Shown here one piece after another: positions 729-54,198 of a stretch of 64,000 nucleotides of DNA. The notes under the pieces are model-generated. The model saw only the letters and a program-made list of their open reading frames with translations. It did no database searches and had not been told where the DNA came from. Numbering within the stretch: position 1 is the first letter of the stretch; every line of letters begins with the position of its first letter. This DNA comes from Candidatus Nomurabacteria bacterium (GTDB lineage: Bacteria; Patescibacteriota; Patescibacteriia; HK-STAS-PATE-3): positions 96,001 through 160,000 of the forward strand of contig CP060223.1 of assembly GCA_023898465.1 (NCBI GenBank). The letters run 5' to 3'. The translations under genes and the position numbers were made by a program.

Positions 729-746
729 CACGTCGTGCATTCTCAA

Positions 747-768: not shown

Positions 769-861
769 GGAATGAGTGCGAGACCCGTACTCTGAACGTT
801 GACAATTGAACGTATCAGGACTGGTTCCTGCATACGACGAGATAAACTTGGAGGTTTCCGT

Positions 862-2085: not shown

Positions 2086-2335
2086 TGTACGAATCCTGGC
2101 CACTTGGTCAGTACTCATAACTCGTCGGGTGGTCAGGAGATCCGTAAGGATTTCTACAAAAGGACCTAAGGGTCCGCGACCTGTGCCGAACGCACACGGA
2201 GGACAACATGCGAAAGCGTGCTCCGCCGACTATCTGATGAGCTTGTGTAACTGACCATGCCCCAATCAACTTGTTTGGGGCTAGGGATTAACCTGCCCCG
2301 ACAACAAAAAATTGGGGCAAGCCAAGGAGGAAGCC

Positions 2336-3625: not shown

Positions 3626-3662
3626 TCGCCAGCCCTGGGAACGCTGACGATTGCACATTCTT

Positions 3663-3712
3663 GCCCCGCCCGCTACAACACTTTGTGTTGAAGCGCGGCG
3701 GGGCTTTCTTTT
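3663..3712 (+). terminator. Rho-independent terminator (island junction 1)
   Basis: The GC stem GCCCCGCCCGCT ... AGCGCGGCGGGGC is followed by TTTCTTTT. Confidence 0.8.
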
Positions 3713-3781
3713 ACCTTGGCAGGATGGAAATGTAACTAGTCTTCAAGTTCTGATGTTTGTTGAAGCAATGTTTCGTAGGGC

Positions 3782-3811
3782 TTGACAAAATAGCACTTTT
3801 CCTGCTAAAGT
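3782..3811 (+). promoter_or_regulatory. Sigma70-like promoter (TTGACA-18-TAAAGT)
   Basis: cTTGACAAAATAGCAC... lies 70 nt after the terminator. It has the same cTTGACAAAAT opening as the promoter at 7944. Confidence 0.5.
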
Positions 3812-4010
3812 TCGCCGTTAACCAATGCGTAAAACCATCTAAAAAACGAACATTTTTACCACAACGACCTTAGTCGTTTGTGCTACTTATGGACATGAAT
3901 GGCTTGAGAAATGCCTAGCATTCCTCAACCGATTCTGGACCGGAAGTACTGCAGTAATTGTCATTCTTTGACAATTGAATTCAGAAGTCATTCTCACAGA
4001 GGAGGGTCTC

Positions 4011-5207
4011 ATGCGGACCTGGTATGTGGTTCTTGCGCTACTGGCGCTCGTCTCCTTTGGGTCCGCTCGGGCCCAGGTCATCGAAATCCCGATCGACTAC
4101 GTCGCGACGGATTCGGTGATTGCGAACTGGCCGCATCTCAACATCGGGGGCAACCCGGTGTACAAGAGCGGCTACCCGGCTGATTCCTTGGCAGTACATG
4201 CTGCTCGGGACGGCTGGTTCAAGACGACCTTCAACTTTCCCGTCGGGATCTACTGTCTCGATAAGGATGGGAAGATCATCAAGGGACGTGTCGAACCCGG
4301 ACAAACCATGAAGAATGGTGCCCGGGCCGATACGCTGATCGTGTCTATTCTAGCTGAGACGCCGGAGCAGACGCTGTATCAGATCCACGTTATTCAGGCG
4401 TGCGGTAACCCCGTGCTCTGGTCAGGCGTCGGTGTGTTGAAAGCACCGAAGCCGACTGGCCCACTGCCGCCGCCAACCCTGACTGTTCCGAAGCCCCCAG
4501 CACCACCTCCCATTGCGGAGACGGAGCCGCCGATCGTAGTAGAGCCTGAAAAACACTTCAGGCTACCGATCGATGGTTGGGCTGGAGTGGCAGGAAGTAA
4601 GTCACTCGAGTCCAAGGCTTGGTCGCTCTTCGAGGGCGTCTACATCGACTTTCCGTTGATCGTGGACAAGCTCACGTTCAAGTTTGGGGCGGCAACGTCT
4701 CAGGCAAACTACGAGAAGCTCCGTGGTCGGACGAGTTACCGAGGTGTTGGCGGCGATATGAGTCGCTGGCAAGTCGGCCTCTTCTACCGGCCTTGGGACA
4801 ACATCCAGGTTACCGGCCTGATTGGTCAGCAGTATGACCATAAGGCTGGCGACTGGCAGGATGGCGTCCAGCTGGAAGGAGTGCTGGGTTTCCCCATCGG
4901 TCGCTGGTGGAACGATGAGGATGTCAGCTACGGCACTACGACCAAAGCACTTTGGTTCCGCACTCGACATGCCTACAAGCTGTCGGGTGAAGGAATGCAT
5001 TGGTGGTCGATCGGCGGCGAGTTTGTCTATGACTCGTTCATGGACAACGATGGTCGATTCTACACTTCGCGCGTTCACGTATTTGGGAAGCGAGAGTTTC
5101 CCGGATTCTGGAATCGCGAGGCTGTCTTCATCTTCGGTGGCGGAAGAGGGAGTAAAGACGAGGCTTGGGGCCTCATAGCAGAACTAGGGCAGCGGCTCTG
5201 GTTCTAG
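4011..5207 (+). CDS. Exported protein with C-terminal beta-barrel-like domain ending in Phe (barrel paralog 2)
   Basis: ATG 4011 follows AGGAGG. The signal peptide is MRTWYVVLALLALVSFGSARA. A Pro-rich linker (PKPTGPLPPPTLTVPKPPAPPP) precedes a C-terminus ending ...FIFGGGRGSKDEAWGLIAELGQRLWF, which aligns with the C-terminus of 862..2085. Confidence 0.7.
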   Translation: MRTWYVVLALLALVSFGSARAQVIEIPIDYVATDSVIANWPHLNIGGNPVYKSGYPADSLAVHAARDGWFKTTFNFPVGIYCLDKDGKIIKGRVEPGQTMKNGARADTLIVSILAETPEQTLYQIHVIQACGNPVLWSGVGVLKAPKPTGPLPPPTLTVPKPPAPPPIAETEPPIVVEPEKHFRLPIDGWAGVAGSKSLESKAWSLFEGVYIDFPLIVDKLTFKFGAATSQANYEKLRGRTSYRGVGGDMSRWQVGLFYRPWDNIQVTGLIGQQYDHKAGDWQDGVQLEGVLGFPIGRWWNDEDVSYGTTTKALWFRTRHAYKLSGEGMHWWSIGGEFVYDSFMDNDGRFYTSRVHVFGKREFPGFWNREAVFIFGGGRGSKDEAWGLIAELGQRLWF

Positions 5208-5221
5208 AAGGGAGATTCCTG

Positions 5222-6385
5222 ATGCGTTTTCTCCGTTTCATGGCCGCTGCGCTGTTGCTGCTCGGTGCCTTCGGGTGCCAGAAGCTCCCCAGCGAGCCGA
5301 TCGACACCGGTGGCAGTCAGCCGCCGCAGGAGTACAACGGACCTGAGTCTGGTCTCGCGCTCAACTTCGAGCGTGGCGCCGGACAATACGAATTCGTTTC
5401 CGACATGTTCATCCATCAGGGTGGCGTGACGGATTGGGCGACTGTAACAGTCAACCCGGATAACTTCTTCCTCACCACCTACGCTGGACACTGGTATAGC
5501 GACATGCTGACCAGGGACGGTGTGCCGGTGCTGGGAGACTACACTCTGGCCGGTTCGACTCCGTCCAACTACTGGATGGATGAGAACCGCGGTGTTTTCG
5601 CGAGCCACATGGTTCTCGTCAGCGACGCTGACAGTGCCTGGGTCTGGCAGTGGCCCTCCAATGCCAGCCAGTTGGTCGACCTCGACATCGAGGTGCTCAA
5701 CTGGTCATCGGCAACGGATCTTGGCGTGGTCGGTACGCCGACGTGTTACGTCGTGCACCCGGCCATGTTGAACCACTTGCATGACAACGTCTACGGACGC
5801 TCGCTACGCCTCCTGCCCGGTGATGCCAAAATCGCTGTGATGGATATGTACGAGCGAGTTGGTCTGGGTGATGCAGTCACGGTCCGTATCAACGGCACCG
5901 AGCTGGTCGCCTACGTCGATGACTTCACGCATGACAACCAGCCGACGGTACATCGTTACTTCCGCTTTCACGTGAACGCGGATGGGACGGTGAGCTCGAT
6001 CGGTACTGAGAACCGATTCTCGTATGGGAACACGGTCTCGGTCAGCAATTCCAATATCGATCCCAGCGCTACGGTGTATCTCAACGGCACAGGCCTCACC
6101 AACGGTGAGATGATGCCGATGACCTATGTCGGCAGCTGGACCTGGCAGCTCACCGGTCTCACGACCTGGGTGGGCGAGCAGGATTTGAGGGTGAGTATGG
6201 AAGACGGGACTGGTGTGTTTCGTACCGTTCGCTTGAACGGAACGGAGTTGCACCACCTGGCTGCCGTGCCGCTCGACCCGGATCCTCCGATCCAGGTCTT
6301 CCGATGCACGCCCATGCATGACCACACGGTGATGCAGGGCGAGGACAACCGGGCCGCTGACATCGGCATGGAGACCGGCGGATGA
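5222..6385 (+). CDS. Lipoprotein, unknown family (lipoprotein paralog 2)
   Basis: ATG 5222 has GGGAG upstream. The signal is MRFLRFMAAALLLLGAFG|C (lipobox). The C-terminus ...MQGEDNRAADIGMETGG resembles that of 2336..3625. Confidence 0.7.
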   Translation: MRFLRFMAAALLLLGAFGCQKLPSEPIDTGGSQPPQEYNGPESGLALNFERGAGQYEFVSDMFIHQGGVTDWATVTVNPDNFFLTTYAGHWYSDMLTRDGVPVLGDYTLAGSTPSNYWMDENRGVFASHMVLVSDADSAWVWQWPSNASQLVDLDIEVLNWSSATDLGVVGTPTCYVVHPAMLNHLHDNVYGRSLRLLPGDAKIAVMDMYERVGLGDAVTVRINGTELVAYVDDFTHDNQPTVHRYFRFHVNADGTVSSIGTENRFSYGNTVSVSNSNIDPSATVYLNGTGLTNGEMMPMTYVGSWTWQLTGLTTWVGEQDLRVSMEDGTGVFRTVRLNGTELHHLAAVPLDPDPPIQVFRCTPMHDHTVMQGEDNRAADIGMETGG

Positions 6386-7869
6386 GCGAAGAAGGTGATG
6401 CGACAAGTCGTGAGGTGCCTCCCCAAGTAAGAGAGGTACTTCGCCAAATGCAACGAGTCGCGAAGAGAGATCGCAAAAAGAAGGCGAAGCATCGAGCCCG
6501 CAGAGAGGAACGGAAAAAACAGGCAAAGGCAAGAGTGAAAGCTCGAACGGGTGAGCAGTCAACAGGTTCTCCAAGGAAAGGAGATGAACCTCGTCGTCCT
6601 GTTCCGCCGCCTCAGCCTGCACCAAGTGCTTCGCCGTCCTACGCATCTCTACTGGGAGATAAGCTTGGGGGAATTCCTCAAGTAAGACGAAATCCGAAGA
6701 GAGCAGAAACAAACCTGGGAGGCTCGCCGAGCTTCCCCCAAGATGAGGAGGGTCATGTAATGCCCGAGGTGTCCATGCGCGAAGAAGGAGGATCGAGGAA
6801 GCTTTTGATTGCCACTGTGGCGATCTTGTGCGTCCTCTTGGTCGGGGTGCTGATCTACACGCATCCCTGGAGTCCTCAGCAAGGTCTGACGGAGACCGAG
6901 GTGTCGGATATGATCAGGGAGTTCGCTGATCAGATGCCGGCTCCGGTCGCTGAAATCCCCGATGACGTGGTACGCAAGGGTGACCTTGCTTCGATGCAGC
7001 CGGCGGCGATCACTCTCAGCGCTTTCGACGAGACCTATCTCGATACGCTGTGGGCGACGGTCAAGGATCCGGTGACCGGGAAGATCGACTCGACGATGGT
7101 CGTGAAGACCCGGACGAGGAATCCCATCACTGATTTGCAGAAGGACGTGAAGAGTACCAATGCCGAGGCTCGTGCAGCCAAGGTTGCGGCACGGAATGCG
7201 GAGAAGCGTCTCAAGGAGACGCCGACCCAATTCGCCGTGACCGTGCCTTCGACTTCCACATCGACTTCGCTTCACCAGCCTGGTGGAGTGCAGTTGGGTG
7301 GTACCACGACCACGACGGCGCCTGTGCAGATGACGACTCGAACGAGTACGCAAGCCGGGCTGGTGGCTGGTACGATCGGAGGTGGTTCGCCGCCCCCGCC
7401 GCCGGCTAGCAACGTCGCTGTGTCCATGACTACCACGATGGTTCCGGCCGGTGAACAGGTGATGGGTGGGGACGGCTTGATGAAGCAGGGTCCGGCCGTT
7501 GCCTTTGTCTACAACGGTCAGACCTACGTTCGTCGGGATCTGGTGCAGCGCAACAAGTACGGCGACCCGATCAACCCCAGTCGAGCTGACCAGAACTTCT
7601 ACGTGATGGCCGGCGAGCAGGGGATGAACTGGAAGCTCGTCAATCCGGCCAAGCAGAAGATGACGGTCCAGGGCGACTATTTGGTCTGGCCTGGCGTGAT
7701 CAAAGGTCCTTTCCAGGTCGGCTGGGTGGATCCGAACGACCCGGCCTACATGCCTGAAAGTGGCGTAGTCTGGGCTCCGATCGCTGAGTTCTACTCCGGC
7801 TACGACGGGACCTTCTGTCGTGACCCCGACTATCAGTTGAGGGCTGTGGCGATCCAGCAGATGCCGTAG
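6382..7869 (+). CDS. Single-pass membrane protein with highly basic N-terminus and C-terminal domain shared with 8047..9225
   Basis: The ATG overlaps the upstream stop (ATGA). The N-terminal ~130 aa are Lys/Arg/Pro-rich (KKKAKHRARREERKKQAKARVKAR). There is one TM segment, LLIATVAILCVLLVGVLIY. A conserved C-terminal domain spans 7465-7866. Confidence 0.65.
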   Translation: MSEEGDATSREVPPQVREVLRQMQRVAKRDRKKKAKHRARREERKKQAKARVKARTGEQSTGSPRKGDEPRRPVPPPQPAPSASPSYASLLGDKLGGIPQVRRNPKRAETNLGGSPSFPQDEEGHVMPEVSMREEGGSRKLLIATVAILCVLLVGVLIYTHPWSPQQGLTETEVSDMIREFADQMPAPVAEIPDDVVRKGDLASMQPAAITLSAFDETYLDTLWATVKDPVTGKIDSTMVVKTRTRNPITDLQKDVKSTNAEARAAKVAARNAEKRLKETPTQFAVTVPSTSTSTSLHQPGGVQLGGTTTTTAPVQMTTRTSTQAGLVAGTIGGGSPPPPPASNVAVSMTTTMVPAGEQVMGGDGLMKQGPAVAFVYNGQTYVRRDLVQRNKYGDPINPSRADQNFYVMAGEQGMNWKLVNPAKQKMTVQGDYLVWPGVIKGPFQVGWVDPNDPAYMPESGVVWAPIAEFYSGYDGTFCRDPDYQLRAVAIQQMP

Positions 7870-7897
7870 TCCGCGACTGCAACGTTCTTTACTTCAA

Positions 7898-7936
7898 CCC
7901 CCGCTATATCTACGGATGTAGCGGGGCTTTCTTTTT
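7898..7936 (+). terminator. Rho-independent terminator (island junction 2)
   Basis: The stem CCCCCGCTA ... TAGCGGGG is followed by CTTTCTTTTT. Confidence 0.8.
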
Positions 7937-7943
7937 ACTATGC

Positions 7944-7972
7944 TTGACAAAATGCCAAAAATAGCATACTAT
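7944..7972 (+). promoter_or_regulatory. Sigma70-like promoter (TTGACA-17-TACTAT)
   Basis: cTTGACAAAATGCC... sits immediately after the terminator. Confidence 0.55.
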
Positions 7973-8046
7973 AGCCGGTTCTTTTTGCACCTCACAATCT
8001 AGTTACACAAGCGAGAGACACTACACATCCCAACCGGGAGGACTAC

Positions 8047-9225
8047 ATGCTCCAACGTTTCTTTGCGTGGTCTTTGCTGGCGCTCTTCGCCTTCGGCTGT
8101 GCCGGAGGTAGTGCCACGCTGAAGCAGCATCAGCAGCCCGTCGGGCAGGTCTACGTGGGCGACTGCGTGCCGTCGGATGGCATTCATCCGACTGGCTACC
8201 TTCGCCTGACCAAGCCGCCGGAGGACTTCAACTCGATGCTGTCGATGTGGCACGCTGTTCAGGCCGAGGGTTCATCCGAGCCCTCGAAGATCGAGGTCGA
8301 CTACATCCGGGTCTACGCCCACGTAGCCGGCCGCGATTCACTGCTCGACAGCGACGAGTACAACGACATGATCGGGGACGGAGGTCTCTATCTTCGTCAT
8401 CCCTCGTGGTTCTACAACGATGACCATACGAGTCTGCCCTGCGAGTTCGACATGGTCAACGGTTACTTGGTCTTGCGACCGAGCGACTACCCGGATCGAG
8501 TCTTTCACTGGTGGAATTCCTACCATCCAGCGGAGGATGTCTGGCGTGTCACTATTCCGGCCGGTGCTACCAACTGCTGGGCAGAGACTCGGATTCGGAT
8601 TACGGGTCCAGCCTATGTCCAGGGCGGCATTGACTACTGGCGTTCACTCACTGCTCCGTACGGCGGCGTCGAAGTGAACAACCGGGAAGCCTGCATGTCC
8701 AACTGGACTTGCTCGGCTGATCCGGGTTGGCAGACCATCGTGGTTGGTAAGGACAAGCCGCAGGGCGACAGCGCTGTGGTCGATGCCGATGAGAACGGGA
8801 AACCGAAAGTCGTCCAGGCTCCGGTCTACGATCCTTTCGAGAGCAAGGCCGACGGTCTCCTCAAGAAAGGCGCTGCTGTCTGTTTTGTACAAGACGGACG
8901 CACCTACTTCCCGAAGGAGATCGTGGCGACGAACAAGTACAGCGATCCGGCTCGCCCCAAGAATGGCAAGTACTACTTGCTGGGCGGGGTGAAGCCATGG
9001 GCTATCGCCGGCGACGATCAAGAGCTCCGGGAAAACGGGGATTACCTCTACTATCCCGGCGTGGTCGACAAGGTGTGTCAGGTGGGCTGGGAGGATCCGG
9101 CCGACGCTTCGGCCGATCCGTCCGGAACCGTATGGAGCGCTTCAGCGGAACTTTTCTCGGGTCGCCCGGGATCAGTTTCGAAGAACGGTCAGTACGGCTA
9201 CCTGCCAGTCAATCTCTCCAACTAG
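8047..9225 (+). CDS. Lipoprotein with jelly-roll-like N-domain and shared C-terminal domain
   Basis: ATG 8047 has GGGAGG 5 nt upstream. The signal is MLQRFFAWSLLALFAFG|C (lipobox). ...IEVDYIRVY... recalls lectin/GH16-type jelly rolls (unverified). The C-terminal domain at 8848-9222 is homologous to 7465-7866. Confidence 0.7.
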   Translation: MLQRFFAWSLLALFAFGCAGGSATLKQHQQPVGQVYVGDCVPSDGIHPTGYLRLTKPPEDFNSMLSMWHAVQAEGSSEPSKIEVDYIRVYAHVAGRDSLLDSDEYNDMIGDGGLYLRHPSWFYNDDHTSLPCEFDMVNGYLVLRPSDYPDRVFHWWNSYHPAEDVWRVTIPAGATNCWAETRIRITGPAYVQGGIDYWRSLTAPYGGVEVNNREACMSNWTCSADPGWQTIVVGKDKPQGDSAVVDADENGKPKVVQAPVYDPFESKADGLLKKGAAVCFVQDGRTYFPKEIVATNKYSDPARPKNGKYYLLGGVKPWAIAGDDQELRENGDYLYYPGVVDKVCQVGWEDPADASADPSGTVWSASAELFSGRPGSVSKNGQYGYLPVNLSN

Positions 9226-9240
9226 GAGAAGGTGATTCAC

Positions 9241-9274
9241 CCCGGTGCATGCAATGCGTGCGCCGGGTTTTCTT
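9241..9274 (+). terminator. Rho-independent terminator (island right edge)
   Basis: The stem CCCGGTGCATGC / GCGTGCGCCGGG (with G-U pairs) is followed by TTTTCTT. Confidence 0.7.
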
Positions 9275-9275
9275 A

Positions 9276-9304
9276 TTGACCATGGGCAATATTTTTGCTA
9301 TAGT
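9276..9304 (+). promoter_or_regulatory. Sigma70-like promoter (TTGACC-17-TATAGT)
   Basis: The promoter directly abuts the terminator and lies 30 nt upstream of ATG 9335. Confidence 0.55.
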
Positions 9305-9334
9305 CGCCTGTTCACTTTCTTTTACTGAGTTGTA

Positions 9335-11107
9335 ATGTTACGCAATATTCTTGTCATTCTCGGACTCGCCATTTCACTCACCAGCTTCACGCCAAAGCAG
9401 GAGAGTCGCGATGGCGTGTATGCGTTTACCACGCCTCCTTTAAGTATTGGTCAAGGAGTGGTGGTGACAAATGATGGCATTGTGATTGGCGATGGCGTGA
9501 CTGATTCCCGGCAAGGAATACAGGAGCTGCTTAGTGGTGATGACTTGGAACATTTTCTTGACCAAAGCTCTCAGCAGTTTGATGCCGTAGAGCTGCGTAT
9601 CTGGACATGGTTCCTGGGTCAAAACGATTTTACTATTGGCACGGTGAATAATTTCCTTGCCCGTGCTCATGCCCACGGCTTGCAAGTGTACTTAAATACT
9701 TGGGAATATCCTGGCACACATCCCGACCTTCTGCCTGCTGAGTATCAGGCATATAAACTTGCTGACACCGGACAACGCGTGCCGGCCCTAGTGAATGATG
9801 GACAAATCAGCGCGCAGCACATTGATAAAGCAAACCCCGCTGCACTGGAATGGATGAGTGGGCAACTGCGGAGTGCGCTGACTTCTTTTGACGTTTTCGA
9901 TGGATACCTCATTGTTGAGGATAGGGTTTCCGATTGGGTGCATGGGTCTTTCCCACAGTATGTACGTTATTGGGATTCACCGACCTATTCCGATGCAGCG
10001 CTTGATTCATTTCAACATTATCTCCTACTGCATGGTCAGGATGCAACACAGCGATTCCCAGTGGATCGTCCGGAGTTAGTTTCTCAATTCACCCAGTATG
10101 TTCCTTCAGCCCCAGAAAGTGCTTTATGGAAGTATTGGTATCAATGGCGCTTTGAACTTTTTGCTGACTATGTGGAGAGTCTGAGTAATGCGGTGAAGTC
10201 AGTGCAAAGGGTGCCAGTGCTTTACATGCCTTGGCAACGTGTGGTGGATGAATTTGATTACGCCTACGCTGATGATTGGTCAGCCAATCGTTGGGATGTT
10301 GGATACGGTCCGGGCAATCCCGAGAATGCCATCTTCGGCGTCTCGCTTCACACCCTGGCAAAACGCGGATCAATTGATGCCTACGTGCATGAATTTGGAG
10401 AGGATGGTACGCATGAGCTCTGGCCAATGTCTTTTAATGCGCTGCAGTTAGAAAAAGCCAAAATTGCTTTGTCAGATTCTTATGTTACCCTAGGCAGCTT
10501 TATTCAATTTTTTAATTACGAAGGTAGAGAAATAGTTTCCCCTGAACTACTTCAAGATGCCTTAGCCATCGGACGGCAAAACGAGGCAAAGATTTTTGTA
10601 GCTTACGATGTTGCCACACTGTATGATCGTTCAGGTCGCTATGATGCACATACCTCAGCGCTTTGGCAGCAAGCAAGAACACATGCATATGCCATTGATG
10701 AAGAGGAAATCCGAAACGCAAGTCAGCTAGCGCCAGCGCAGGTTTTTGCTCGAAAATTACCTGAACAGATTCCAGAAGGAGTGGCCGCCTGGACTGCCGA
10801 TGATGGGTATGTGTATGTGCGGACCGAGGCTCTGCCCGGTAACGGACCATACTATGTCGTATACGATCACTGGAATGCACCACTACTTGATGCGCAGCAC
10901 CTTATGGAATACTATCCAGAGCATGGTTTAGTCGCTATACATGCTGATGGGTTAAAAGGCGCTGCTTTTCAAATCATTACTCCGGGACCGCAGGGTAGCG
11001 TCGCGTGGTCAGAAATTCGTGAACAGCTTTGTGAGCTGGGGTATCAAGGGATCGTATGTAGCCCAAATAGTTGGCTTTATCAACCAGTGGGGCTTCATTC
11101 CATGTAG
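9335..11107 (+). CDS. Exported or anchored 590-aa protein, family not recognised
   Basis: This is a long ORF in host-like composition. The N-terminus is hydrophobic (MLRNILVILGLAISLTS). It is possibly glycosidase-like, but I could not verify that. Confidence 0.6.
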   Translation: MLRNILVILGLAISLTSFTPKQESRDGVYAFTTPPLSIGQGVVVTNDGIVIGDGVTDSRQGIQELLSGDDLEHFLDQSSQQFDAVELRIWTWFLGQNDFTIGTVNNFLARAHAHGLQVYLNTWEYPGTHPDLLPAEYQAYKLADTGQRVPALVNDGQISAQHIDKANPAALEWMSGQLRSALTSFDVFDGYLIVEDRVSDWVHGSFPQYVRYWDSPTYSDAALDSFQHYLLLHGQDATQRFPVDRPELVSQFTQYVPSAPESALWKYWYQWRFELFADYVESLSNAVKSVQRVPVLYMPWQRVVDEFDYAYADDWSANRWDVGYGPGNPENAIFGVSLHTLAKRGSIDAYVHEFGEDGTHELWPMSFNALQLEKAKIALSDSYVTLGSFIQFFNYEGREIVSPELLQDALAIGRQNEAKIFVAYDVATLYDRSGRYDAHTSALWQQARTHAYAIDEEEIRNASQLAPAQVFARKLPEQIPEGVAAWTADDGYVYVRTEALPGNGPYYVVYDHWNAPLLDAQHLMEYYPEHGLVAIHADGLKGAAFQIITPGPQGSVAWSEIREQLCELGYQGIVCSPNSWLYQPVGLHSM

Positions 11108-38091: not shown

Positions 38092-39075
38092 ATGCCATAT
38101 TTTTTCCGTGGACCATTTCTCATAATGATTGCGGCTATGCTGTGGGCCTTAGACGGTTTACTGCGCTCACAGCTTACTGCGTCAATTCCCTCCACCGCCA
38201 TTGTTTTTTATGAGCACCTGGTAGGCTTTGTCCTTCTTCTCCCTTTTTTCTGGAGAGCTCTACCTAAAGTAAAAACATTGCATCGAGCTGATTGGTTTCG
38301 ACTCATTTTACTTACCATAGTGAGTAGTGTGCTTGGCACTATTCTTTTTACCGAGGCATTTGCCCGGAGCGCTGTTTCTTATGACTTCATCACTCCAACC
38401 TTACTGCAAAAACTCCAACCAGTTTTTGTGGTGCTACTCTCAGCTATTCTCTTACGCGAGCGAGTGACATGGCGTTTCATTGGTTTAGCCATACTCGCTT
38501 TAGTAGGTAGCTATATGGTTACTTTTGGATCCGAATCTGTTTCGCTAAGCTGGAGCGGTAAAGAGATAGTGTTTCTCTTATCTATCGGCGCTGCCTTAGC
38601 CTGGGGATCGGGTACTATTTTGAGCAAGAAGATTTTAGAGAAGCTTTCATTTAGCGAGGCGACTTCCTTGCGTTTCTTATTAGCCATTCCTATTAGTGCT
38701 ATCGCGATGCTAACACTTAATCATGGCTATAGTCCGGTGGAAATTTCCGGGGCTTCTTGGCTCCGCTTCGTCGCTATTGGTTTGACTACTGGAGCAGCGG
38801 CGATTCTTATCTACTACCGTGGCTTGCGAATTACACCAGCGAAAGTCTCCACTTTTGCTGAGTTGATGTTTCCCGTCACAAGTATTCTCATAGCCGTGAC
38901 AGCGCTTAATCCCTTTGGCGCGCCGCAGCCCATTAGCTTTGGCCAGGGCCTAGGTATTCTTATCCTCATCGTTTCCATTTTACTTATTGGAACGAGTGAG
39001 CTACCCGCGCCTAAAGTAAAAGAGAGTGAAGCATATGAAGGAGCTACCCAGTCCGAGCCAGTATCTACAACATAA
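38092..39075 (+). CDS. EamA/DMT-family transporter
   Basis: There are ten hydrophobic helices in two EamA-like halves. Confidence 0.7.
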   Translation: MPYFFRGPFLIMIAAMLWALDGLLRSQLTASIPSTAIVFYEHLVGFVLLLPFFWRALPKVKTLHRADWFRLILLTIVSSVLGTILFTEAFARSAVSYDFITPTLLQKLQPVFVVLLSAILLRERVTWRFIGLAILALVGSYMVTFGSESVSLSWSGKEIVFLLSIGAALAWGSGTILSKKILEKLSFSEATSLRFLLAIPISAIAMLTLNHGYSPVEISGASWLRFVAIGLTTGAAAILIYYRGLRITPAKVSTFAELMFPVTSILIAVTALNPFGAPQPISFGQGLGILILIVSILLIGTSELPAPKVKESEAYEGATQSEPVSTT

Positions 39076-40078
39076 ACTTGAAACCTGCGGTCAGTATACA
39101 TTGACCGAGTCTGATCACGCTCTTCTCAAAGAAAAAGGCATGGAGGAGTTTTTGTACGCAAAACTTACTTCCAAGAAATTTCGGAAGTGGAGAATAACTC
39201 AAAAAGCAGAAGACCGCATCCGTAATGCACTTTCTGTCACGGTGCCAAAGAATAAGCCACTACAGTTACGTTTTCCCTTTGGGGCATATAAACTTTGGCG
39301 CTTGCCATCAAGTCCAGAAGTGGACTGGGCTGAGTTTTTTACCTTGGCGTATTTCTCAGAGTTCCTCGCACCAATTTTAGCCGCATATCAACCGGGGGTG
39401 GAGTTGTATTTTTCTTCAGATGAGGTAATTGTCGAACCTATGAACAATGTATCTCGAGAAGAAACAGATGCATACCAAGAATCATTCAGGCGTTTGTTGG
39501 CAGAATTTAAAAAGTATTGGCCAAATAATTTCATTGTTGATATTCGACCTGTGCGCAATCTCTATAACAATGCAGAAGAAATTTTCAATGAAGCTCAGCA
39601 AATGATTCCGATAATTGAAGAAAGATATGCGGCCATGTCAAAAGAGGAAGTCGCTTCTGCTGAAAAAACCTCAGCCATGAATATTCGCTGGGATGGAGTT
39701 CAGGATTGGCAGAAGCTTACTGAGGATGAAAAGAAGGAAAAAATTCACTACGGCACAATATTACACGATGCCTATTGCGCGATTAGCAAACGACAACAAT
39801 TCATGCGTAGTGACGATACGATTTTACTTTTTGTAAATAGACAAGTTTCTGATGGTATTCCACTAGGTAGCACTAAGAATTCAATTGCGAAGTTTTGGCC
39901 GGGCTACGGAGTGTTGGAACAAAAAGAAGCAGGCTATATAGAGAGAGTGCTGACCCCGCAACAACTTACTTCATTGCAGCATGAGAAAGCTCAAATTGAA
40001 GCAATCGATTGGCTGCCAATGAAAAACTTTCACGAGATCCAAGTGTATCCTGAGCTGAATTTTACGCTTACTAAATAG
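39035..40078 (+). CDS. Conserved hypothetical protein, tandem paralog A
   Basis: The ORF-track start is GTG 39026. ATG 39035 gives MKELPSPSQYLQ..., colinear with paralog B (MSHFSPSQYLQ...). The pair is homologous throughout. I do not recognise the family. Confidence 0.7.
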   Translation: MKELPSPSQYLQHKLETCGQYTLTESDHALLKEKGMEEFLYAKLTSKKFRKWRITQKAEDRIRNALSVTVPKNKPLQLRFPFGAYKLWRLPSSPEVDWAEFFTLAYFSEFLAPILAAYQPGVELYFSSDEVIVEPMNNVSREETDAYQESFRRLLAEFKKYWPNNFIVDIRPVRNLYNNAEEIFNEAQQMIPIIEERYAAMSKEEVASAEKTSAMNIRWDGVQDWQKLTEDEKKEKIHYGTILHDAYCAISKRQQFMRSDDTILLFVNRQVSDGIPLGSTKNSIAKFWPGYGVLEQKEAGYIERVLTPQQLTSLQHEKAQIEAIDWLPMKNFHEIQVYPELNFTLTK

Positions 40079-40140
40079 TTCTAGACAGGATCCATCAGAA
40101 CACTTAGTATGCACTAGGAGAACTTTCTTATTGCAGTCGT

Positions 40141-41181
40141 ATGTCACATTTTAGTCCGAGTCAGTATTTACAACATAGACTCGAAAGTTGTGGTCACTAC
40201 GAGTTGACCGCGTCAGACCATGTTCTACTCAAAGAAAAAGGCATGGAAGAGTTCTTGTACGCCAAGCTTACTTCCAAGAAATTTCGGAAGTGGAGAATTC
40301 AAGAAAGTTACCAAAAAGAGATTCGTGAACAGATTCGCTATTGTGTAGAAAAAAATATTCCAATAGAGCCAACTTGGTTTTTTGGTGGATATAAATTATG
40401 GAGCTTACCCGGCTCGCCTGAACCAAACTGGGCTGAGTTTTTTACTATCGCATATTTTCTACAATTTATTTCTCCAATCGCGGCGGCTTATTCTCCCGGT
40501 GTGACTTTCAAATTTTGGGTTGCTCATGCTTCAATTATGCTGCAGCAAAGCAATATACCCATTAAAGAGTGTATAAAATATAGAGAGGAATTTAATCGAT
40601 TGCTTTCCTTTTTTAGAAAGTACCTTCCCTCAAATATTGTTGTAGAGCTTCATGACTATTCTGAACTTTATCCAGATCAAAACGAATACGAGCAAGAATT
40701 AGAGCAATGTATCCTAAATACAGAAAGAAAATATCACGAAGAATGGACTGAGGATAGAAAAAGAATTAAGAGAACAACTTCAGAATTAAATATACAGTGG
40801 TCTGGAGCAGAGGATTGGACCAAGTTGGGTGAAAGTGAAAGAGAAGAAAAGATTTTTCGTGGACCATTGGTTCATGATGGGTATTGTGCTTTATCAAGAG
40901 TGAACGAAGCATTACGCGGGTCAGGTAAACTTGACTTGAGTGCTACGCCTTTGCCTTCAGGATCAATTCCAGTTGGCACAAGTGCAAGTTCCGTGACTAA
41001 ATTCTGGACCGGAGTTGGTGTGCTTGAAAAACATGATAGTCGCTATGTGGAGCGAATTTTATCCCCTCAGCAATGGAATGCTGTTCAGGGTCTATCTGTT
41101 CAAATTGAAGCAATCGATTGGCTGCCAATGAAAAACTTTCACGAGATCCAAGTGTATCCTGAGCTGAATTTTTCTCGCTAG
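40141..41181 (+). CDS. Conserved hypothetical protein, tandem paralog B
   Basis: The protein is 346 aa. It shares GxYKLWxLPxSPEPxWAEFFTxAYF, AAYxPGV, HDxYCAxS and KFWxGxGVLE with paralog A. Confidence 0.7.
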   Translation: MSHFSPSQYLQHRLESCGHYELTASDHVLLKEKGMEEFLYAKLTSKKFRKWRIQESYQKEIREQIRYCVEKNIPIEPTWFFGGYKLWSLPGSPEPNWAEFFTIAYFLQFISPIAAAYSPGVTFKFWVAHASIMLQQSNIPIKECIKYREEFNRLLSFFRKYLPSNIVVELHDYSELYPDQNEYEQELEQCILNTERKYHEEWTEDRKRIKRTTSELNIQWSGAEDWTKLGESEREEKIFRGPLVHDGYCALSRVNEALRGSGKLDLSATPLPSGSIPVGTSASSVTKFWTGVGVLEKHDSRYVERILSPQQWNAVQGLSVQIEAIDWLPMKNFHEIQVYPELNFSR

Positions 41182-41237
41182 ATAAGACTGGACAATTTTA
41201 TCCTCTCTACGTACTATGCAAGTAGTCCGTCTTCAGA

Positions 41238-41966
41238 ATGGCTGTACACAATATTAAGGGGCATAGCATGTTTTCTCGTAATATCTTGATCGCCCTTTCT
41301 CAACCTGAGGATGGGGACATGCGGGCGCAAGCGTCCGATGGAAACGGCCTAGAACGCCGTAGGATTTTTTTGGAGTCCGAGGGCTTTAGGTCTGATCAGG
41401 CTGTCTACGCTGGACTTGATCATGGCACGAATGTGATTGCAGTCCGCGGGACAGACGCTGGTCAAACTGTTCCAGACGTGGACGGTTTAGTAACGAACGA
41501 AGCAGGTCTAGTCCTGGGTCTGACCGTAGCTGATTGTTTGCCAGTTTATTTGTATGACCCAAGGACCGAGGCGATTGGACTCCTCCATGCCGGGTGGCGC
41601 GGCTTGGAGCAAGGTGTGCTGAGGCAGGGGATTGAACGAATGCAGCAAAGCTTCCGAGTGCACCCAGAGGATGTATTCGCAGCAATTGGTCCGAGTATCC
41701 GATCCTGCCACTATCAAGTAGGCGAGGAAGTGGCGAGACGATTTCGGGCACGCTATTCACTAGCTTTGGAACAGCGGGGACTCGAAACAAGACTGGATCT
41801 TACCAGGGTTGCTCGTATGCAGCTCGGTGAGGTAGGAGTCATTGCGCGTCACATCGAGGTTCATCCTCATTGCACCTACTGTCGGCCGGGTTTGTACTTT
41901 TCTCGTCGGAGGCAGGGCACAGGCTTTGGTCTGATGCTTGCTACAATCGCACGCTTACCAAGTTAG
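41238..41966 (+). CDS. pgeF: YfiH/PgeF-family (DUF152, purine nucleoside phosphorylase/laccase-domain) protein
   Basis: VADCLPVYLYD and LLHAGWRGL are hallmark motifs. An alternative start is ATG 41268. Confidence 0.8.
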   Translation: MAVHNIKGHSMFSRNILIALSQPEDGDMRAQASDGNGLERRRIFLESEGFRSDQAVYAGLDHGTNVIAVRGTDAGQTVPDVDGLVTNEAGLVLGLTVADCLPVYLYDPRTEAIGLLHAGWRGLEQGVLRQGIERMQQSFRVHPEDVFAAIGPSIRSCHYQVGEEVARRFRARYSLALEQRGLETRLDLTRVARMQLGEVGVIARHIEVHPHCTYCRPGLYFSRRRQGTGFGLMLATIARLPS

Positions 41967-50613: not shown

Positions 50614-53600
50614 ATGAGTATGAAAAACGTTGTACCGGAAGGGGAATACAACCCAGCAAGTATTGAAGCAAAATGGCAGGAGCACTGGAACAAAAAACCA
50701 GATCAGGCTAAGGATTTTGCGCATGATCCAAAGCGCTATCTTCTCATTGAATTTCCTTACCCCTCAGGTGATGGACTGCATGTGGGGCATGTGCGAAGCT
50801 ATGCCGCTCTCGATGTGTTGGCGCGTTATTCTCGCTTAAAGGGTTTTAATGTGCTTTACCCCATCGGCTGGGATGCTTTTGGTTTACCCACCGAGAATTA
50901 TGCGATTAAGACTGGCGTACACCCACGTGTTGCGACTGATAAGAATATTGCCACCTTTCGCCGCCAGCTTAAGGCGCTAGGCCTTTCATTTGATTGGTCT
51001 CGAGAAGTGGATACAACAGATCCAAAATACTATCGATGGACACAGTGGATTTTTTTGCAGTTCTATAAGGCAGGCTTAGCCTATCAGGCAGAGATTCCTA
51101 TTAACTGGTGTCCAAAAGATAAAATCGGTTTGGCCAATGAAGAAGTGGTTGATGGCAAATGCGAACGCTGCGGCACTGAAGTAACGCGTAAAATGCAAAA
51201 GCAGTGGATGTTAAAAATCACCGCCTATGCAGATCGCTTACTACGTGATCTCGATACAGTTGAGTACGTTGAAAAAATTAAAACACAGCAGAAAAACTGG
51301 ATAGGTAAGAGCGAGGGTGCTGAAATATCTTTTCAAATAGCTAGTAAGGAGTCGCAAAAACCTCGCTTCGTACTTCTCCATGGTTTTCAGGGCTCAGCTA
51401 AAGGTAACTTTTTCCCATGGCTAAAAGATGAGTTGGTCGCAAAGGGCTATGAGGTGGAAGTACCTGAATTACCAAACAGCGCTCATCCGACTGAAGAGGA
51501 ACAGGTAAGTTATGTACTTGAACATTGTCGCTTTGATGAAAACACCATCGTGTTTGGTCATTCGCTTGGTACAGTCGTGGCCATGAAGGTTATAGAAAAG
51601 CTTCCCACAAAAGTAGCTGGCTTGGTTATGGCCGGTGGATTTACCCAGGCTGATTTTTCTGATCACGATCGACCATTCCGCGATACCTTTACATGGAATT
51701 TTGATTTCCAGGCGATTCGAGATAAAGCAGGTTTTATAAAAGTGCTACATGACGTGCATGATGATGCCGTGCCCGAGGGAGCTGGAGAGGCTTTAGCAAA
51801 AGCGCTCGAAGTGCCGTGCTACAAGGTGACCGCAAATGAAGAGCATTTCTGCGCAAAGCAAGAGCCTTATCTATTAGCGCATCTCATGCCAAACACACTT
51901 TTGGTTGGTACGCAAAATCAGGCAAAGGTGGAAATGCTTCGACGAGCATTGGCCCCTTACCCAAATATTCACCTCATCAGTTTAAGTGATATTGGTAAGG
52001 TCGATGATCAGGCTTTAGTAGAGGGCGATGACTTTCGTGCTAATGCAAAAATGAAAGCAGATTTTTATCACCGAGCCACAGGTTTACCAACCATATCGAC
52101 GGATCATATTCTTTGGATAGAGAAATGGCCTGAGGATAATGGCTTCATTACGCATATTCGCAAATTAGCAAATCCGAAATCTGGACGAGCAACAGATGAA
52201 GAACTAGCAGAATGGATAAAAAAATTTATCGATAAAAATGGTGAGTCGCGTACAGCCTTTCATTATGCTATTGGTTATGCCGATGAGAAGGGAGTGCAGG
52301 GCTTTGTGAGTATTCAGCGCGAATACATGTTGAAGGCTAATCCGGCTAAAGCACGATGGGAAGGCTATGCGGTCGGTGCATTTTTGCGTGACCCCGTGAC
52401 TGATGCGTATCGAGAAGAGATGCCCGCAGAGATCGCTTTTGATCGCTTCTTCGCCACAGTGCGCAATGAAATTGTGCCGCAGGTTTTCGATATGAGCACC
52501 TTGACGGTCTTTACCACACGACCCGATACCATCTTCGGTGTCACGTATATGGTTGTAGCCCCTGAACATGAACTCCTTGCCAAGTATCAATCACACATTA
52601 CAAATTGGGATGAAGTTCAAAAGTATGTGCGAGAGGCCGCCAAGAAATCCGATATGGAGCGGACCGAGTTGGCCAAAGAAAAAAGTGGCGTTGAGCTCAA
52701 AGGTATTCAGGCAGTAAATCCGGCAAATGGTGAAGTAATCCCGATTTGGGTAGCTGACTATGTGCTGAGTTCTTATGGCACCGGAGCGATAATGGCTGTG
52801 CCGGCGCATGATCAGCGAGACAATGAGTTTGCAAAAAAGTACTCCCTGCAAATAAGAGAAGTAGTAAGAGGTTTTAATCGTGTAGGAGAGAAAAAAGATA
52901 TTGTATATTCTGGCGAGGGGGTCCTAGTAAATTCTCAGGACTTTGATGGAGAAAAAAGCGAAGACGCAAAAAAGAACATTGTAAGGTGGTTAGAAGAAAA
53001 AGGACTCGGTCATTCAGCAGTCAATTTTAAACTTCGCGACTGGGTATTTTCACGTCAGCACTACTGGGGCGAGCCGATTCCGATTATTCATTGTCCTAAG
53101 TGCGGAGCTGTTCCAGTGCCGGAGAAAGACCTACCAGTGGAATTGCCTCATGTAGAAAAATACCAACCCACTAATACTGGGGCTTCACCATTAGCTGCGA
53201 TCGAGGATTGGGTGCAGGTGAAATGTCCGAAGTGTAAGGGCGAAGCGAGTCGAGAAACCGACACCATGCCGAATTGGGCCGGGAGCTCGTGGTATTTCCT
53301 GCGCTATTCGGATCCGCACAATAGTAAAGCCTTTGCTGATAAGAAAAAGCTAGAGTATTGGCTGCCGGTGGATATTTACAATGGTGGCAATGAGCACACC
53401 ACCCTCCATTTACTCTACTCGCGTTTCTGGCATAAGTTTTTATTTGATCAGGGCTTGGTACCAACTCCAGAACCATACCAGCATCGTCATTCGCATGGGA
53501 TTGTGTTAGCTGAGGATAATCGCAAGATGTCAAAGAGTTGGGGGAACGTGGTCAATCCGGATGATTATGTGCAGGAGTACGGTGCAGATAGCGTGCGCAT

Positions 53601-54198
53601 GTACGAGTTATTTATGGGACCATTTGAGGATATGATTCCGTGGTCAACCAAGGGTATCGTGGGTGTGCATCGCTTCTTAAATCGTGTGTGGGAACTTTAT
53701 CGTAAAGTTACAGAAGAGACGGCCCAAGTAACAGAAGAGAGGGACATTCACAAAGCTGTGAAAAAGGTTGGGGAAGACCTCGAGGCTTTTCGTTTCAACA
53801 CCGCGGTGAGCACTTTGATGGAATATTTTAATCACTTCCGTGATGAAGTGCAGCAGGGTAGGCTCGATAAAGAAGCAGCAGAAAAGTTTCTCGTGATCCT
53901 TTTCCCATTTGCGCCGCACCTTGCCTCAGAGCTCTGGGAGCAGTTAGGAAAGAAGAGCGATATTCGCGAACAATCATGGCCAAACTTTGATCCAAACGCT
54001 TTACAAGCGGAGACCGTCACGATCGGTGTGCAGATTAATGGCAAAGTGCGCGCCTCCATAAGCCTTTCACCAGAAGCAAGCGAAGCAGAAGCGCTGGAGC
54101 TAGCCTTAGCCGAAGAAAATATTCAACGCTATCTTCAAAAGGGACAGCCCAAGAAGGTTATTTATCGTGCAGGAAAAATTCTCAATCTGATCGCCTGA
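50614..54198 (+). CDS. leuS: Leucyl-tRNA synthetase with ~387-aa two-domain insertion before CP1
   Basis: HIGH (HVGH), KMSKS, the Zn-knuckle CPKD...CERCG, the CP1 start TTRPDT and AHDQRDNEFA are all present. At 1194 aa it is far longer than E. coli LeuRS (860 aa). Confidence 0.95.
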   Translation: MSMKNVVPEGEYNPASIEAKWQEHWNKKPDQAKDFAHDPKRYLLIEFPYPSGDGLHVGHVRSYAALDVLARYSRLKGFNVLYPIGWDAFGLPTENYAIKTGVHPRVATDKNIATFRRQLKALGLSFDWSREVDTTDPKYYRWTQWIFLQFYKAGLAYQAEIPINWCPKDKIGLANEEVVDGKCERCGTEVTRKMQKQWMLKITAYADRLLRDLDTVEYVEKIKTQQKNWIGKSEGAEISFQIASKESQKPRFVLLHGFQGSAKGNFFPWLKDELVAKGYEVEVPELPNSAHPTEEEQVSYVLEHCRFDENTIVFGHSLGTVVAMKVIEKLPTKVAGLVMAGGFTQADFSDHDRPFRDTFTWNFDFQAIRDKAGFIKVLHDVHDDAVPEGAGEALAKALEVPCYKVTANEEHFCAKQEPYLLAHLMPNTLLVGTQNQAKVEMLRRALAPYPNIHLISLSDIGKVDDQALVEGDDFRANAKMKADFYHRATGLPTISTDHILWIEKWPEDNGFITHIRKLANPKSGRATDEELAEWIKKFIDKNGESRTAFHYAIGYADEKGVQGFVSIQREYMLKANPAKARWEGYAVGAFLRDPVTDAYREEMPAEIAFDRFFATVRNEIVPQVFDMSTLTVFTTRPDTIFGVTYMVVAPEHELLAKYQSHITNWDEVQKYVREAAKKSDMERTELAKEKSGVELKGIQAVNPANGEVIPIWVADYVLSSYGTGAIMAVPAHDQRDNEFAKKYSLQIREVVRGFNRVGEKKDIVYSGEGVLVNSQDFDGEKSEDAKKNIVRWLEEKGLGHSAVNFKLRDWVFSRQHYWGEPIPIIHCPKCGAVPVPEKDLPVELPHVEKYQPTNTGASPLAAIEDWVQVKCPKCKGEASRETDTMPNWAGSSWYFLRYSDPHNSKAFADKKKLEYWLPVDIYNGGNEHTTLHLLYSRFWHKFLFDQGLVPTPEPYQHRHSHGIVLAEDNRKMSKSWGNVVNPDDYVQEYGADSVRMYELFMGPFEDMIPWSTKGIVGVHRFLNRVWELYRKVTEETAQVTEERDIHKAVKKVGEDLEAFRFNTAVSTLMEYFNHFRDEVQQGRLDKEAAEKFLVILFPFAPHLASELWEQLGKKSDIREQSWPNFDPNALQAETVTIGVQINGKVRASISLSPEASEAEALELALAEENIQRYLQKGQPKKVIYRAGKILNLIA

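Follow-up and report, generated by a model that had tools for sequence, protein, structure and literature searches.

Short homogenised ends around two old core types: probable segmental gene conversion in a tandem pair of PvcA/IsnA-fold genes of Candidatus Nomurabacteria

Introduction

How can two neighbouring genes be nearly the same at their ends and clearly different in the middle? The question is raised by a tandem pair, here called gene A and gene B, in a 64,000-nucleotide stretch of Candidatus Nomurabacteria DNA (the whole stretch is referred to as the window). A sequence-only reading of this DNA had proposed that the copies recombine or undergo gene conversion, or else a nucleotide-level constraint such as an RNA structure, in a family that it could not recognise.

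The locus and its flanks

Both genes are complete open reading frames in tandem on the same strand. The coordinates are those of the window.

38092..39075, + strand: EamA/DMT transporter gene, upstream syntenic flank (Pfam EamA, E 1e-32)
39035..40078, + strand: gene A, ORF of 347 aa, A-type, Patescibacteria branch of the PvcA/IsnA/Dit1 (PF05141) fold
40082..40110, + strand: candidate promoter-like site in the A-B spacer, TAGACA-17-TAGTAT, a consensus match only
40141..41181, + strand: gene B, ORF of 346 aa, B-type of the PvcA/IsnA/Dit1-fold family, a rare monophyletic subtype
41189..41217, + strand: candidate promoter-like site 3′ of B, TGGACA-17-TACTAT, a consensus match only
41238..41966, + strand: Cu-oxidase_4 (YfiH/PgeF-like) gene, downstream syntenic flank (Pfam PF02578, E 9e-58)

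The start of gene A overlaps the end of the EamA gene, and a GTG at 39026 offers an alternative start that would give a protein of 350 aa. In the protein alignment A and B are identical at 174 of 352 positions, about 50%, a level that would be reached only because the ends have been converted. They are identical to proteins P0001 (A) and P0002 (B), both of which are known from one contig in one assembly of the genome. The two promoter-like sites are paralogous, standing at homologous positions after A and after B.

Much of this neighbourhood is shared with relatives. The EamA gene of the window is 69% identical to the EamA gene adjoining the single B-type gene of locus L001, and the Cu-oxidase_4 gene also lies 3′ of B-type genes in L001, L084, L086 and L088. 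The order EamA-B-YfiH-HU with a single B gene is found in L001 and L088. The ten genes flanking A and B in the window (EamA, His_Phos_1, Cu-oxidase_4, HU, thioredoxin reductase-like and similar) include no IsnB/PvcB-type Fe(II)/2-oxoglutarate dioxygenase and no isonitrile-cluster gene. Clustering of the ORFs of 84 family loci revealed no recurrent operon partner except an ABC transporter, present at 14 of the 84.

Family and fold

The family proves to be a recognisable one. Gene A scores 29.6 bits against Pfam PF05141, above the gathering threshold of 26.4, with residues 99-226 matching profile positions 33-164 of 273, and NCBI names P0001 an 'L-tyrosine/L-tryptophan isonitrile synthase family protein'. 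Gene B matches no Pfam family at E<=1 in the HMM search, P0002 is annotated as hypothetical, and B is tied to the PF05141 family only through its A-type relatives and its fold. Against the PvcA equivalog model NF045653 of NCBIfam, A scores 11.9 bits with a cut-off of 600 and B has no match.

The AF2 models have pLDDT values of 91.9 (A) and 91.4 (B), and both termini are well-ordered elements with pLDDT above 90. In Foldseek the A model matches PIsnA (9dhm_B, E 9.5e-10, TM 0.62/0.69) and PvcA (3e59_B, E 3e-9). The B model matches PIsnA 9dhm_B at E 6.7e-9 (TM 0.62/0.68), its PIsnA and PvcA matches ranging from 7e-9 to 1e-6. By their models both proteins have the isonitrile-synthase fold of PvcA and PIsnA, and they belong to a Patescibacteria-wide branch of the PvcA/IsnA-fold family that holds two old core types.

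PMC7949033 describes the chemistry of the family as the formation of an isonitrile (or an N-formyl amino acid) from Tyr or Trp and ribulose-5-phosphate. The likeness of A and B to the IsnA/PvcA/Dit1 isonitrile synthases (PvcA 3E59, PIsnA 9DH4/9DHM) extends over the full length of the fold (TM 0.55-0.69, E 1e-9 to 1e-6), a comparable size of about 310-350 aa, and the aligned residues K86 (FGGYK vs PTKS), D-x-A-E and G121, together with the S-D of 'SDG' in A-types. Unlike these enzymes, however, A and B have hosts that are genome-reduced Patescibacteria and a locus with no IsnB/PvcB-type dioxygenase or other conserved partner nearby. They are only 13-16% identical to them, A falls far below the NF045653 cut-off and B gives no Pfam match, and the B-type carries Ala-His for Ser-Asp and an added Trp. 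The isonitrile-synthase activity of A and B is putative. A literature search found nothing usable on the catalytic residues of IsnA, PvcA or PIsnA, including the role of Ser-Asp, and no paper linking Patescibacteria with isonitrile.

Two core types

The cores of A and B differ at a motif that is close to invariant within each type, and the pairing of the two signatures made from the letters alone is correct.

39413..39427, + strand: A-type signature SSDEV; at least 98% of A-types keep S128 and D129, which in the alignment match the S-D of CSDGH in PIsnA
40516..40533, + strand: B-type signature WVAHAS, with an inserted Trp and with Ala-His in place of Ser-Asp

The A-type motif reads F-SSDD...ERMDN and the B-type motif FW-x-AH-x-S...QSN. 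Ala-His replaces Ser-Asp, and a Trp is inserted, in B and in all 17 B-types, which have a mean column identity of 63% and form a monophyletic clade in every bootstrap of the neighbour-joining (NJ) tree of the core (60/60, 100%). Conservation in the family is highest in the core, with a mean pairwise identity of 0.52, whereas A and B share only 0.40 there. The B-type occurs alone in many genomes, and most genomes hold a single copy of either type. The A-type and B-type cores are two discrete, old and well conserved types, each apparently under purifying selection. GC3 is 0.29 in the B core, against 0.375 in the A core and 0.49 in the N-terminal block of B, and the neighbouring genes also lie above the B core. 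Such a low value would also suit a B core acquired from elsewhere.

The homogenised ends

Two pairs of segments, one at each end of the genes, carry the unusual similarity.

39050..39195, + strand: N-terminal homogenised block of A, 146 nt, 85% identical to the B copy, holding the exact run 39164-39195
40153..40298, + strand: N-terminal homogenised block of B, holding the exact run 40267-40298
39991..40063, + strand: C-terminal tract of A, a putative conversion tract of 73 nt, exact, with pS = 0 throughout
41100..41172, + strand: C-terminal tract of B, a 73-nt exact direct repeat of the A copy

The C-terminal repeat, which encodes QIEAIDWLPMKNFHEIQVYPELNF, was found again as the sequence-only reading had described it, with a mismatch at either edge. 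It occurs only in these two copies in the 64-kb window, where none would be expected by chance, and at 73 nt it is longer than any exact A/B run in 5000 codon-shuffled alignments, the longest of which reached 39 nt. Among degenerate codons for identical amino acids, all 22 in the tract are identical between the genes, and the core has 47/100 identical (Fisher p=6e-7). The pS profile falls to 0.00 over the last 24 codons from a core saturated at 0.6-1.0, its borders are sharp, and the identity ends 13 nt before the stop codon of A. No other segment is as poorly conserved in the family as this tract (mean pairwise identity 0.33, 99th percentile 0.65), and only N331 and F332 are conserved across it, while A and B agree at 24/24 residues. 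To judge from these comparisons, the C-terminal similarity of A and B goes beyond what constraint on the protein can account for.

The N-terminal block is of another kind. Its 32-nt exact match (39164-39195 = 40267-40298) is real, but it lies in a block of 146 nt with 22 mismatches; a run of that length is unremarkable in DNA that is 85% identical, and with synonymous sites only marginally below the core it was set aside as evidence by itself. Of the degenerate codons for identical amino acids, 14/41 differ (p=0.03 against the core), with pS of 0.48-0.61, dS of about 0.8-1.0 and dN of 0.03-0.18. The protein identity of A and B in the block is nevertheless 0.86, above the family's 99th percentile of 0.72. 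An event at this end would have to be older, because 14 of the 41 synonymous codons differ there. The notion that synonymous sites are frozen at the termini thus holds for the C-terminal tract and fails for the N-terminal block.

Segment trees and recurrence

The history of the pair depends on the segment from which it is read. A and B are paired in none of the 60 bootstraps of the core NJ tree, in 60/60 of the N-terminal trees and in 51/60 of the C-terminal trees, so that the cores cluster by type, the termini by genome, and the segment trees are discordant. Clustering of the termini by genome is seen in three independent cases. At locus L007, from another MAG of another study, the tandem pair has the reverse order, B then A. 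Over roughly 220 nt at the C-terminal end its two genes show 90-99% identity and pS of 0-0.19, the longest exact run there being 91 nt, and its core is saturated. This is an independent recurrence of the same mosaic. The shared C-terminus is weakly B-like in the window and clearly B-like in L007.

In related organisms, L081 (B-type) and L082 (A-type) both lie upstream of the same Peptidase_C39_2 gene, and their DNA is similar (73-78%) only in the gene ends and the flank and not at all in the core. A proposed tandem pair of P0005 and P0108 was rejected, these being single genes from different samples at a syntenic locus. The A-type partners of B lineages (P0001, P0136, P0005) cluster together as sister to the B clade, with weak support in the core NJ tree (19/60 and 13/60). 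The idea that all go back to one ancestral A-B tandem is therefore weakly supported; the gene order of one retained pair is also the reverse of the other, and A would have to have been lost independently several times. In L149 and L157, two further tandem pairs, homogenisation is absent or limited to 29 identical nt at the 5′ end, so terminal conversion is not universal among tandem copies of the family.

Origin of the mosaic

Non-reciprocal copying that leads to concerted evolution of bacterial paralogs is well known from tufA/tufB and the rRNA operons. Segmental gene conversion between ancient tandem paralogs probably produced the A/B mosaic as well. The sequence-only reading had chosen the right class of process: dS computed along the genes is not uniform and drops from a saturated core to zero with sharp borders in the least conserved tract of the family, and the segment trees disagree. 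A and B are old paralogs whose cores belong to two long-separated types, differing at a near-invariant motif in the active-site region (Ser-Asp in the A-type, Trp-x-Ala-His in the B-type). Lying one after the other on the same strand, the genes would have allowed homologous recombination to copy short stretches between them repeatedly and non-reciprocally. At least two events would be needed, a very recent one of 73 nt at the 3′ ends and an older one of about 146 nt at the 5′ ends, where 22 differences have since accumulated. The cores were probably kept apart by their divergence, as about 45-55% nucleotide identity is likely to be too little for recombination, and by the likely outcome that chimeric cores would mix two active-site solutions. 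Direct repeats at both ends would make the pair prone to deletion to an A-only or B-only gene, which would explain why the locus holds just one gene, of either type, in relatives. As to direction, the B-like C-termini give weak hints of copying from B to A.

The same process in tufA/tufB and the rRNA operons is alike in its non-reciprocal homogenisation within one genome, its discordant trees and its local dS near zero. In A and B, by contrast, it is confined to short terminal tracts of anciently diverged, functionally distinct genes, and the newest tract falls where the protein is least conserved.

Selection on the protein might instead keep the termini alike, for example if N-terminal helices and C-terminal strands docked the two enzymes to one another or to a common partner. 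This is unlikely as the explanation of the mosaic, but in a form in which terminal conversions are favoured and fixed and core conversions are purged it complements gene conversion. It draws on the genome-wise clustering of the termini in three cases, on the very low N-terminal dN (0.03-0.18) at appreciable dS and on the order of both termini in the models. In the N-terminal block the synonymous contrast with the core is marginal in the window (p=0.03) and not significant in L007, which counts against conversion there, and the grouping of this block by genome could come partly from protein-level co-evolution. Yet most genomes manage with a single copy, so an A-B interaction is not required for function; no conserved neighbour appears across the 84 loci, and the interaction itself is hypothetical. 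A constraint on the nucleotides, such as an RNA structure, a site for an sRNA or a protein, or a regulatory element within the coding sequence, would account for zero synonymous change over 73 nt and is nonetheless very improbable. The tract has an MFE of -5.7 kcal/mol and folds worse than its shuffles (z=+2.17), it has no Rfam family at E<=1, its protein and therefore its DNA are unconserved in other family members, and the identical stretch of L007 differs in sequence and extent. The suggestion of an RNA-level element accordingly finds no support. That reads of one copy built or corrected the other during assembly or polishing might be suspected from the presence of the exact proteins on only one contig; it is equally far-fetched, since a 73-nt repeat with strongly diverged flanks is short enough for reads of normal length to map uniquely, both frames are intact across it, the older N-terminal block with its 22 scattered differences is impossible from read collapse, and the pattern returns in the independent MAG of L007.

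A further scenario starts from a recent tandem duplication, probably of a resident B-type gene, after which one core was replaced by a foreign core of the other type through homologous recombination in the conserved edges; the identical ends would be leftovers of the duplication and the core an imported cassette. Several observations suit it: the same-synteny relatives L001 and L088 carry B only, the termini of A are weakly B-like (clearly so in L007), GC3 is discontinuous within B, the shared locus of L081 and L082 has A and B cores set between similar ends, and the promoter-like element common to the spacers after A and B is what a duplicated unit would leave. It is nonetheless an unlikely account. 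The ends differ in age (dS about 0 against about 0.8-1.0) and a single duplication cannot cover both, the A cores of B lineages cluster beside the B clade and are not scattered among A-types, and foreign DNA would offer only short and imperfect homology at the edges.

The arrangement had also been likened to a cassette system with a variable core between constant ends. The presence of A and B cores between similar ends in L081 and L082 agrees with this in part, but there are only two core types, both conserved and old, and the 64-kb window has neither a third copy nor a silent donor cassette. On an evolutionary scale the cores have thus been exchanged, or lost in different lineages, between conserved ends; as a running mechanism this is hypothetical. 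The pair resembles pilE/pilS, vlsE and the DGRs in having conserved ends around a region that differs between copies, with recombination implied. It differs from them in consisting of two full-length, expressed-looking genes with no silent cassettes, in having cores that are conserved enzyme types and not hypervariable, in coding for cytoplasmic enzymes and in the lack of a reverse transcriptase or invertase among the ten flanking genes.

Significance

The A/B pair is a compact case of mosaic concerted evolution, statistically clean and otherwise ordinary, and the phenomenon is of a known kind. It indicates that long-separated enzyme genes go on trading their ends in two or more unrelated genomes, and that direct repeats plausibly drive the repeated loss of one copy. 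Mosaics of this sort mislead whole-gene phylogenies and orthology calls.

A more far-reaching view, speculative and of little probability, sees in the end repeats not just scars but a possible built-in recombination switch for an enzyme whose active site has a Ser-Asp and a Trp/Ala-His solution. Lineages, perhaps even cells within a population, could shift at the locus between having both genes, A alone or B alone, by conversion and repeat-mediated deletion or re-duplication, and selection could keep the ends exchangeable. In a related view, isonitrile or N-formyl-amino-acid chemistry would possibly be widespread among ultra-small bacterial episymbionts, unless the fold serves a new reaction in them, and the B-type would stand for a second chemistry within the PvcA/IsnA-fold family. 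The rare B-subtype of this Patescibacteria-wide family, with its altered signature motif, is newly defined here, and A and B provide a protein pair for testing the role of the fold in organisms of minimal metabolism.

Genes A and B and their repeats

The proteins encoded by the tandem paralogs A and B can be aligned over their full length, with 174 of 352 columns identical.

39035-40078 (+): gene A, open reading frame with ATG start (alternative GTG at 39026)
40141-41181 (+): gene B, open reading frame on the same strand as A
39991-40063 and 41100-41172 (+): 73-nt exact direct repeat (repeat finder), the C-terminal tract
39050-39195 and 40153-40298 (+): N-terminal block pair, 146 nt, 85% identity with 22 mismatches (repeat finder)
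39164-39195 and 40267-40298 (+): 32-nt exact run inside the N-terminal block

Mismatches border both exact runs on either side, and the 73-mer has two copies in the 64-kb window where chance would give none. At the 3′ ends, identity sets in at TCAAATTGA and stops 13 nt ahead of the stop codon of A, and the 5′ block runs from codon 6-9 to just past ...KWRI, each with a sharp border. In the core between them, SSDEV of A (39413-39427) pairs in the alignment with (W)VAHAS of B (40516-40533). The open reading frames, exact matches and motif pair described in the sequence-only reading are therefore correct by ORF, repeat and alignment checks. The first ~40-50 nt of A (39026-39075) are shared with the end of the upstream EamA transporter gene, an overlap that suggests co-transcription or translational coupling. 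The spacers after A (40082-40110) and B (41189-41217) carry, at homologous positions, a promoter-like T[AG]GACA-17-TA[GC]TAT followed by GCA; these are consensus matches, and their corresponding positions suggest that a putative downstream promoter was part of the duplicated unit.

Protein family and fold

The family, first taken as unrecognised, has a known fold. A clears the gathering score of Pfam PF05141 (DIT1_PvcA), with 29.6 bits against 26.4; B matches no Pfam family, and scores against the NCBIfam PvcA equivalog fall far short of its cut-off. The AlphaFold models (pLDDT 91.9 for A and 91.4 for B) have a common topology, and Foldseek against the PDB returns PIsnA (9DHM/9DH4) and PvcA (3E59) as top matches for both, over the full length, with E 1e-9 to 1e-6, TM 0.55-0.69 and 13-16% identity. 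The family profile aligns FGGYK with PTKS, D-W-A-E with D-M-A-E, G121 with G and S-D with the S-D of CSDGH in PIsnA. Together with the fold and Pfam matches, this alignment assigns the family to the isonitrile-synthase fold, as a remote branch centred on Patescibacteria. As outlined in PMC7949033, isonitrile synthases join a carbon of ribulose-5-phosphate to the amino nitrogen of Tyr or Trp; we infer the biochemical function of the A/B family from its predicted fold. The next structural neighbours of the models, weaker than PvcA/PIsnA, are tyrosyl/tryptophanyl-tRNA synthetases and cyclodipeptide synthases (TM ~0.3-0.4, probability up to 1.0). They would fit a class-I aaRS-like Rossmann core, perhaps with a pocket for an aromatic amino acid.

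Out of 1.84 billion cluster representatives, an exhaustive profile search recovers 481 at E<=1e-3, the named matches coming from Saccharibacteria, Levy-, Gottesman-, Kerfeld-, Dojka-, Nomura-, Paceibacteria and similar groups. No IsnB/PvcB-like partner or conserved neighbour gene was found in the window flanks or at the family loci. In public data, a single contig of 1,082,586 bp from a Candidatus Nomurabacteria MAG encodes the exact A and B proteins, annotated as 'L-tyrosine/L-tryptophan isonitrile synthase family protein' (A) and 'hypothetical protein H6760_00600' (B).

Two core types

A-type cores, the majority in alignments, carry F-SSDD-x-IIERMDNIP. The rare B-type, 17 of the 153 full-length proteins collected, carries WFFGGYKLW, FW-x-AH-x-SIM-xx-QSNIP, NIQW, HDGYC and RG-x-GK-x-DL-TATPLP; the separating columns are P81F, an inserted W126, S128A, D129H, M136Q, T144C and A246G. 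B-types form a clade in 60/60 bootstraps of the core NJ tree (residues 60-300) and a single cluster of the 50%-identity library, whose representative scores 592 bits against 415 for the next. A B-subtype defined by Ser-Asp to Ala-His plus Trp is a result worth keeping. At most loci the B-type gene is single (L001-L006, L016, L081, L084-L095), and no second family locus appears in assemblies with a lone B-type gene among the best 80 of 143 genome matches; very likely, therefore, B works by itself and is no dead partner of A. GC3 of the B core (40300-41097) is 0.29, below the A core (39197-39990; 0.375), the B N-terminal block (0.49) and neighbouring genes (0.38-0.61), which could hint at foreign origin or gene-specific codon bias.

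Synonymous divergence and mosaic pattern

Whole-gene dS between A and B is 1.71 and dN 0.47. The Nei-Gojobori sliding-window profile, a check proposed at the outset, is non-uniform: pS is 0.6-1.0 (saturated) in the core, ~0.5 with very low dN in the N-terminal block and 0.00 over the last 24 codons. A codon test was restricted to degenerate codons where A and B have the same amino acid.

Degenerate codons at identical amino acids in A and B
C-terminal tract: 22 same, 0 different; Fisher vs core p=6e-7
Core: 47 same, 53 different; reference
N-terminal block: 27 same, 14 different; Fisher vs core p=0.03

The 73-nt run exceeds the maximum of 39 in 5000 codon-shuffled alignments; the terminal identity is real and far beyond chance. 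From codon counts and pS, the description of synonymous sites as frozen at both termini fits the C-terminal tract (22/22 same) but not the N-terminal block, where 14/41 differ. The N-terminal block is an event older than, or different from, the C-terminal one.

Protein identity by segment
N-terminal block: A vs B 0.80-0.86; nearest non-partner relatives at most ~0.59; family mean 0.46 (99th percentile 0.72)
Core: A vs B 0.40; best for A, A-types 0.51, and for B, B-types 0.60; family mean 0.52 (99th percentile 0.81)
C-terminal tract: A vs B 24/24; nearest non-partner relatives ~0.5; family mean 0.33 (99th percentile 0.65)

Across the family the C-terminal tract is least and the core most conserved, so that the A-vs-B pattern is the inverse of that expected under purifying selection. 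Segment trees agree with these identities, pairing A with B in 0/60 bootstraps for the core, 60/60 for the N-terminal and 51/60 for the C-terminal segment.

Recurrence in other genomes

A marine Patescibacteria MAG from a different project (JAHIZJ010000109, locus L007) has the tandem in opposite order, B at 5010-6041 and then A at 6083-7105. Over the last ~220 nt the two genes reach 90-99% identity, pS is 0-0.19 and one exact run spans 91 nt; their cores are saturated. Protein sequences of the N-terminus group by genome, with synonymous sites not significant. In this pair the shared termini are clearly similar to those of other B-types, suggesting a transfer of termini from B to A.

Similar mosaics join single genes from different samples. 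The B-type P0108 (L081) and the A-type P0005 (L082/L083) each lie upstream of a Peptidase_C39_2 gene; by BLASTN they share 73% identity over the first ~150 nt and 78% over the last ~200 nt plus the downstream gene, with no similarity in the core, and their termini pair in 53/60 and 28/60 bootstraps. Just downstream on the P0108 contig (Patescibacteria, L081 8001-10224) are a Y1 transposase, a ferric-reductase-like protein and a heliorhodopsin. In the NJ tree of the core, the B-linked A-types (A itself, P0001, with P0136 and P0005) form one cluster adjoining the B clade, with weak bootstraps (19/60 and 13/60).

Two syntenic relatives have one B gene, with EamA upstream, where the window has A and B: L001 (EamA 69% amino acid identity, B 56%, YfiH 44%, HU 77%) and L088 (EamA, B, YfiH). 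Also worth keeping as a result is that a syntenic locus occurs in A-only, B-only and A+B states. Among distant family members, one tandem pair (L149, 3010-3984 and 3988-5010) has ends that are not homogenised; in another (L157, 1912-2916 and 2962-3966) the copies are identical only over 29 nt at the 5′ start, and one of them carries a third motif variant, F-SQD...ESLNN.

Origin of the mosaic

Gene conversion between the copies, among the original proposals, is supported by the pS collapse, the codon test and the discordant segment trees. The simplest account is an old duplication, tandem co-residence and recurrent short terminal conversion. The duplication would have occurred in the lineage ancestral to the B-type, A-type and B-type copies would have stayed long together in tandem, and short conversion tracts would recur at the ends, where similarity persists; divergence, together with selection on two distinct motif solutions, would protect the cores. 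With direct repeats at either end, deletion should be easy: recombination between C-terminal tracts would leave an A-only gene, and between N-terminal blocks a B-only gene. Such deletion would fit the A/B 'alleles' at one locus and the large number of relatives with a single copy.

The main alternative holds that the duplication was recent and that one copy then took in a foreign core. It draws on the syntenic relatives with B only, the GC3 discontinuity within B and the paralogous promoter-like elements, but leaves the differing ages of the two ends and the clustering of A-type partner cores without explanation. A nucleotide-level element such as an RNA structure, also proposed originally, is disfavoured as what keeps the tract identical, since the 73-nt tract folds poorly (z=+2.17), has no Rfam match and, in L007, has another sequence and extent. 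The shortness of the repeat, the diverged sequence on both its flanks and the same pattern arising independently in the L007 MAG make an assembly artefact unlikely. The cassette reading finds no support; the pair is a further instance of a well-known evolutionary process in members of a known fold family.

Other features of the window

GC is 0.53-0.58 in window 1-11100 and 0.44-0.49 in the remainder. Seven consecutive ORFs there (390-590 aa) have no Pfam match; the region may represent an island or a cluster of lineage-specific surface proteins. A 1194-aa LeuRS at 50614-54198 (+) has catalytic, editing and anticodon-binding domains; residues ~250-450, within the catalytic core, match Abhydrolase_1/6 and Ser_hydrolase, so that it appears to carry an alpha/beta-hydrolase domain, unusual for a LeuRS.
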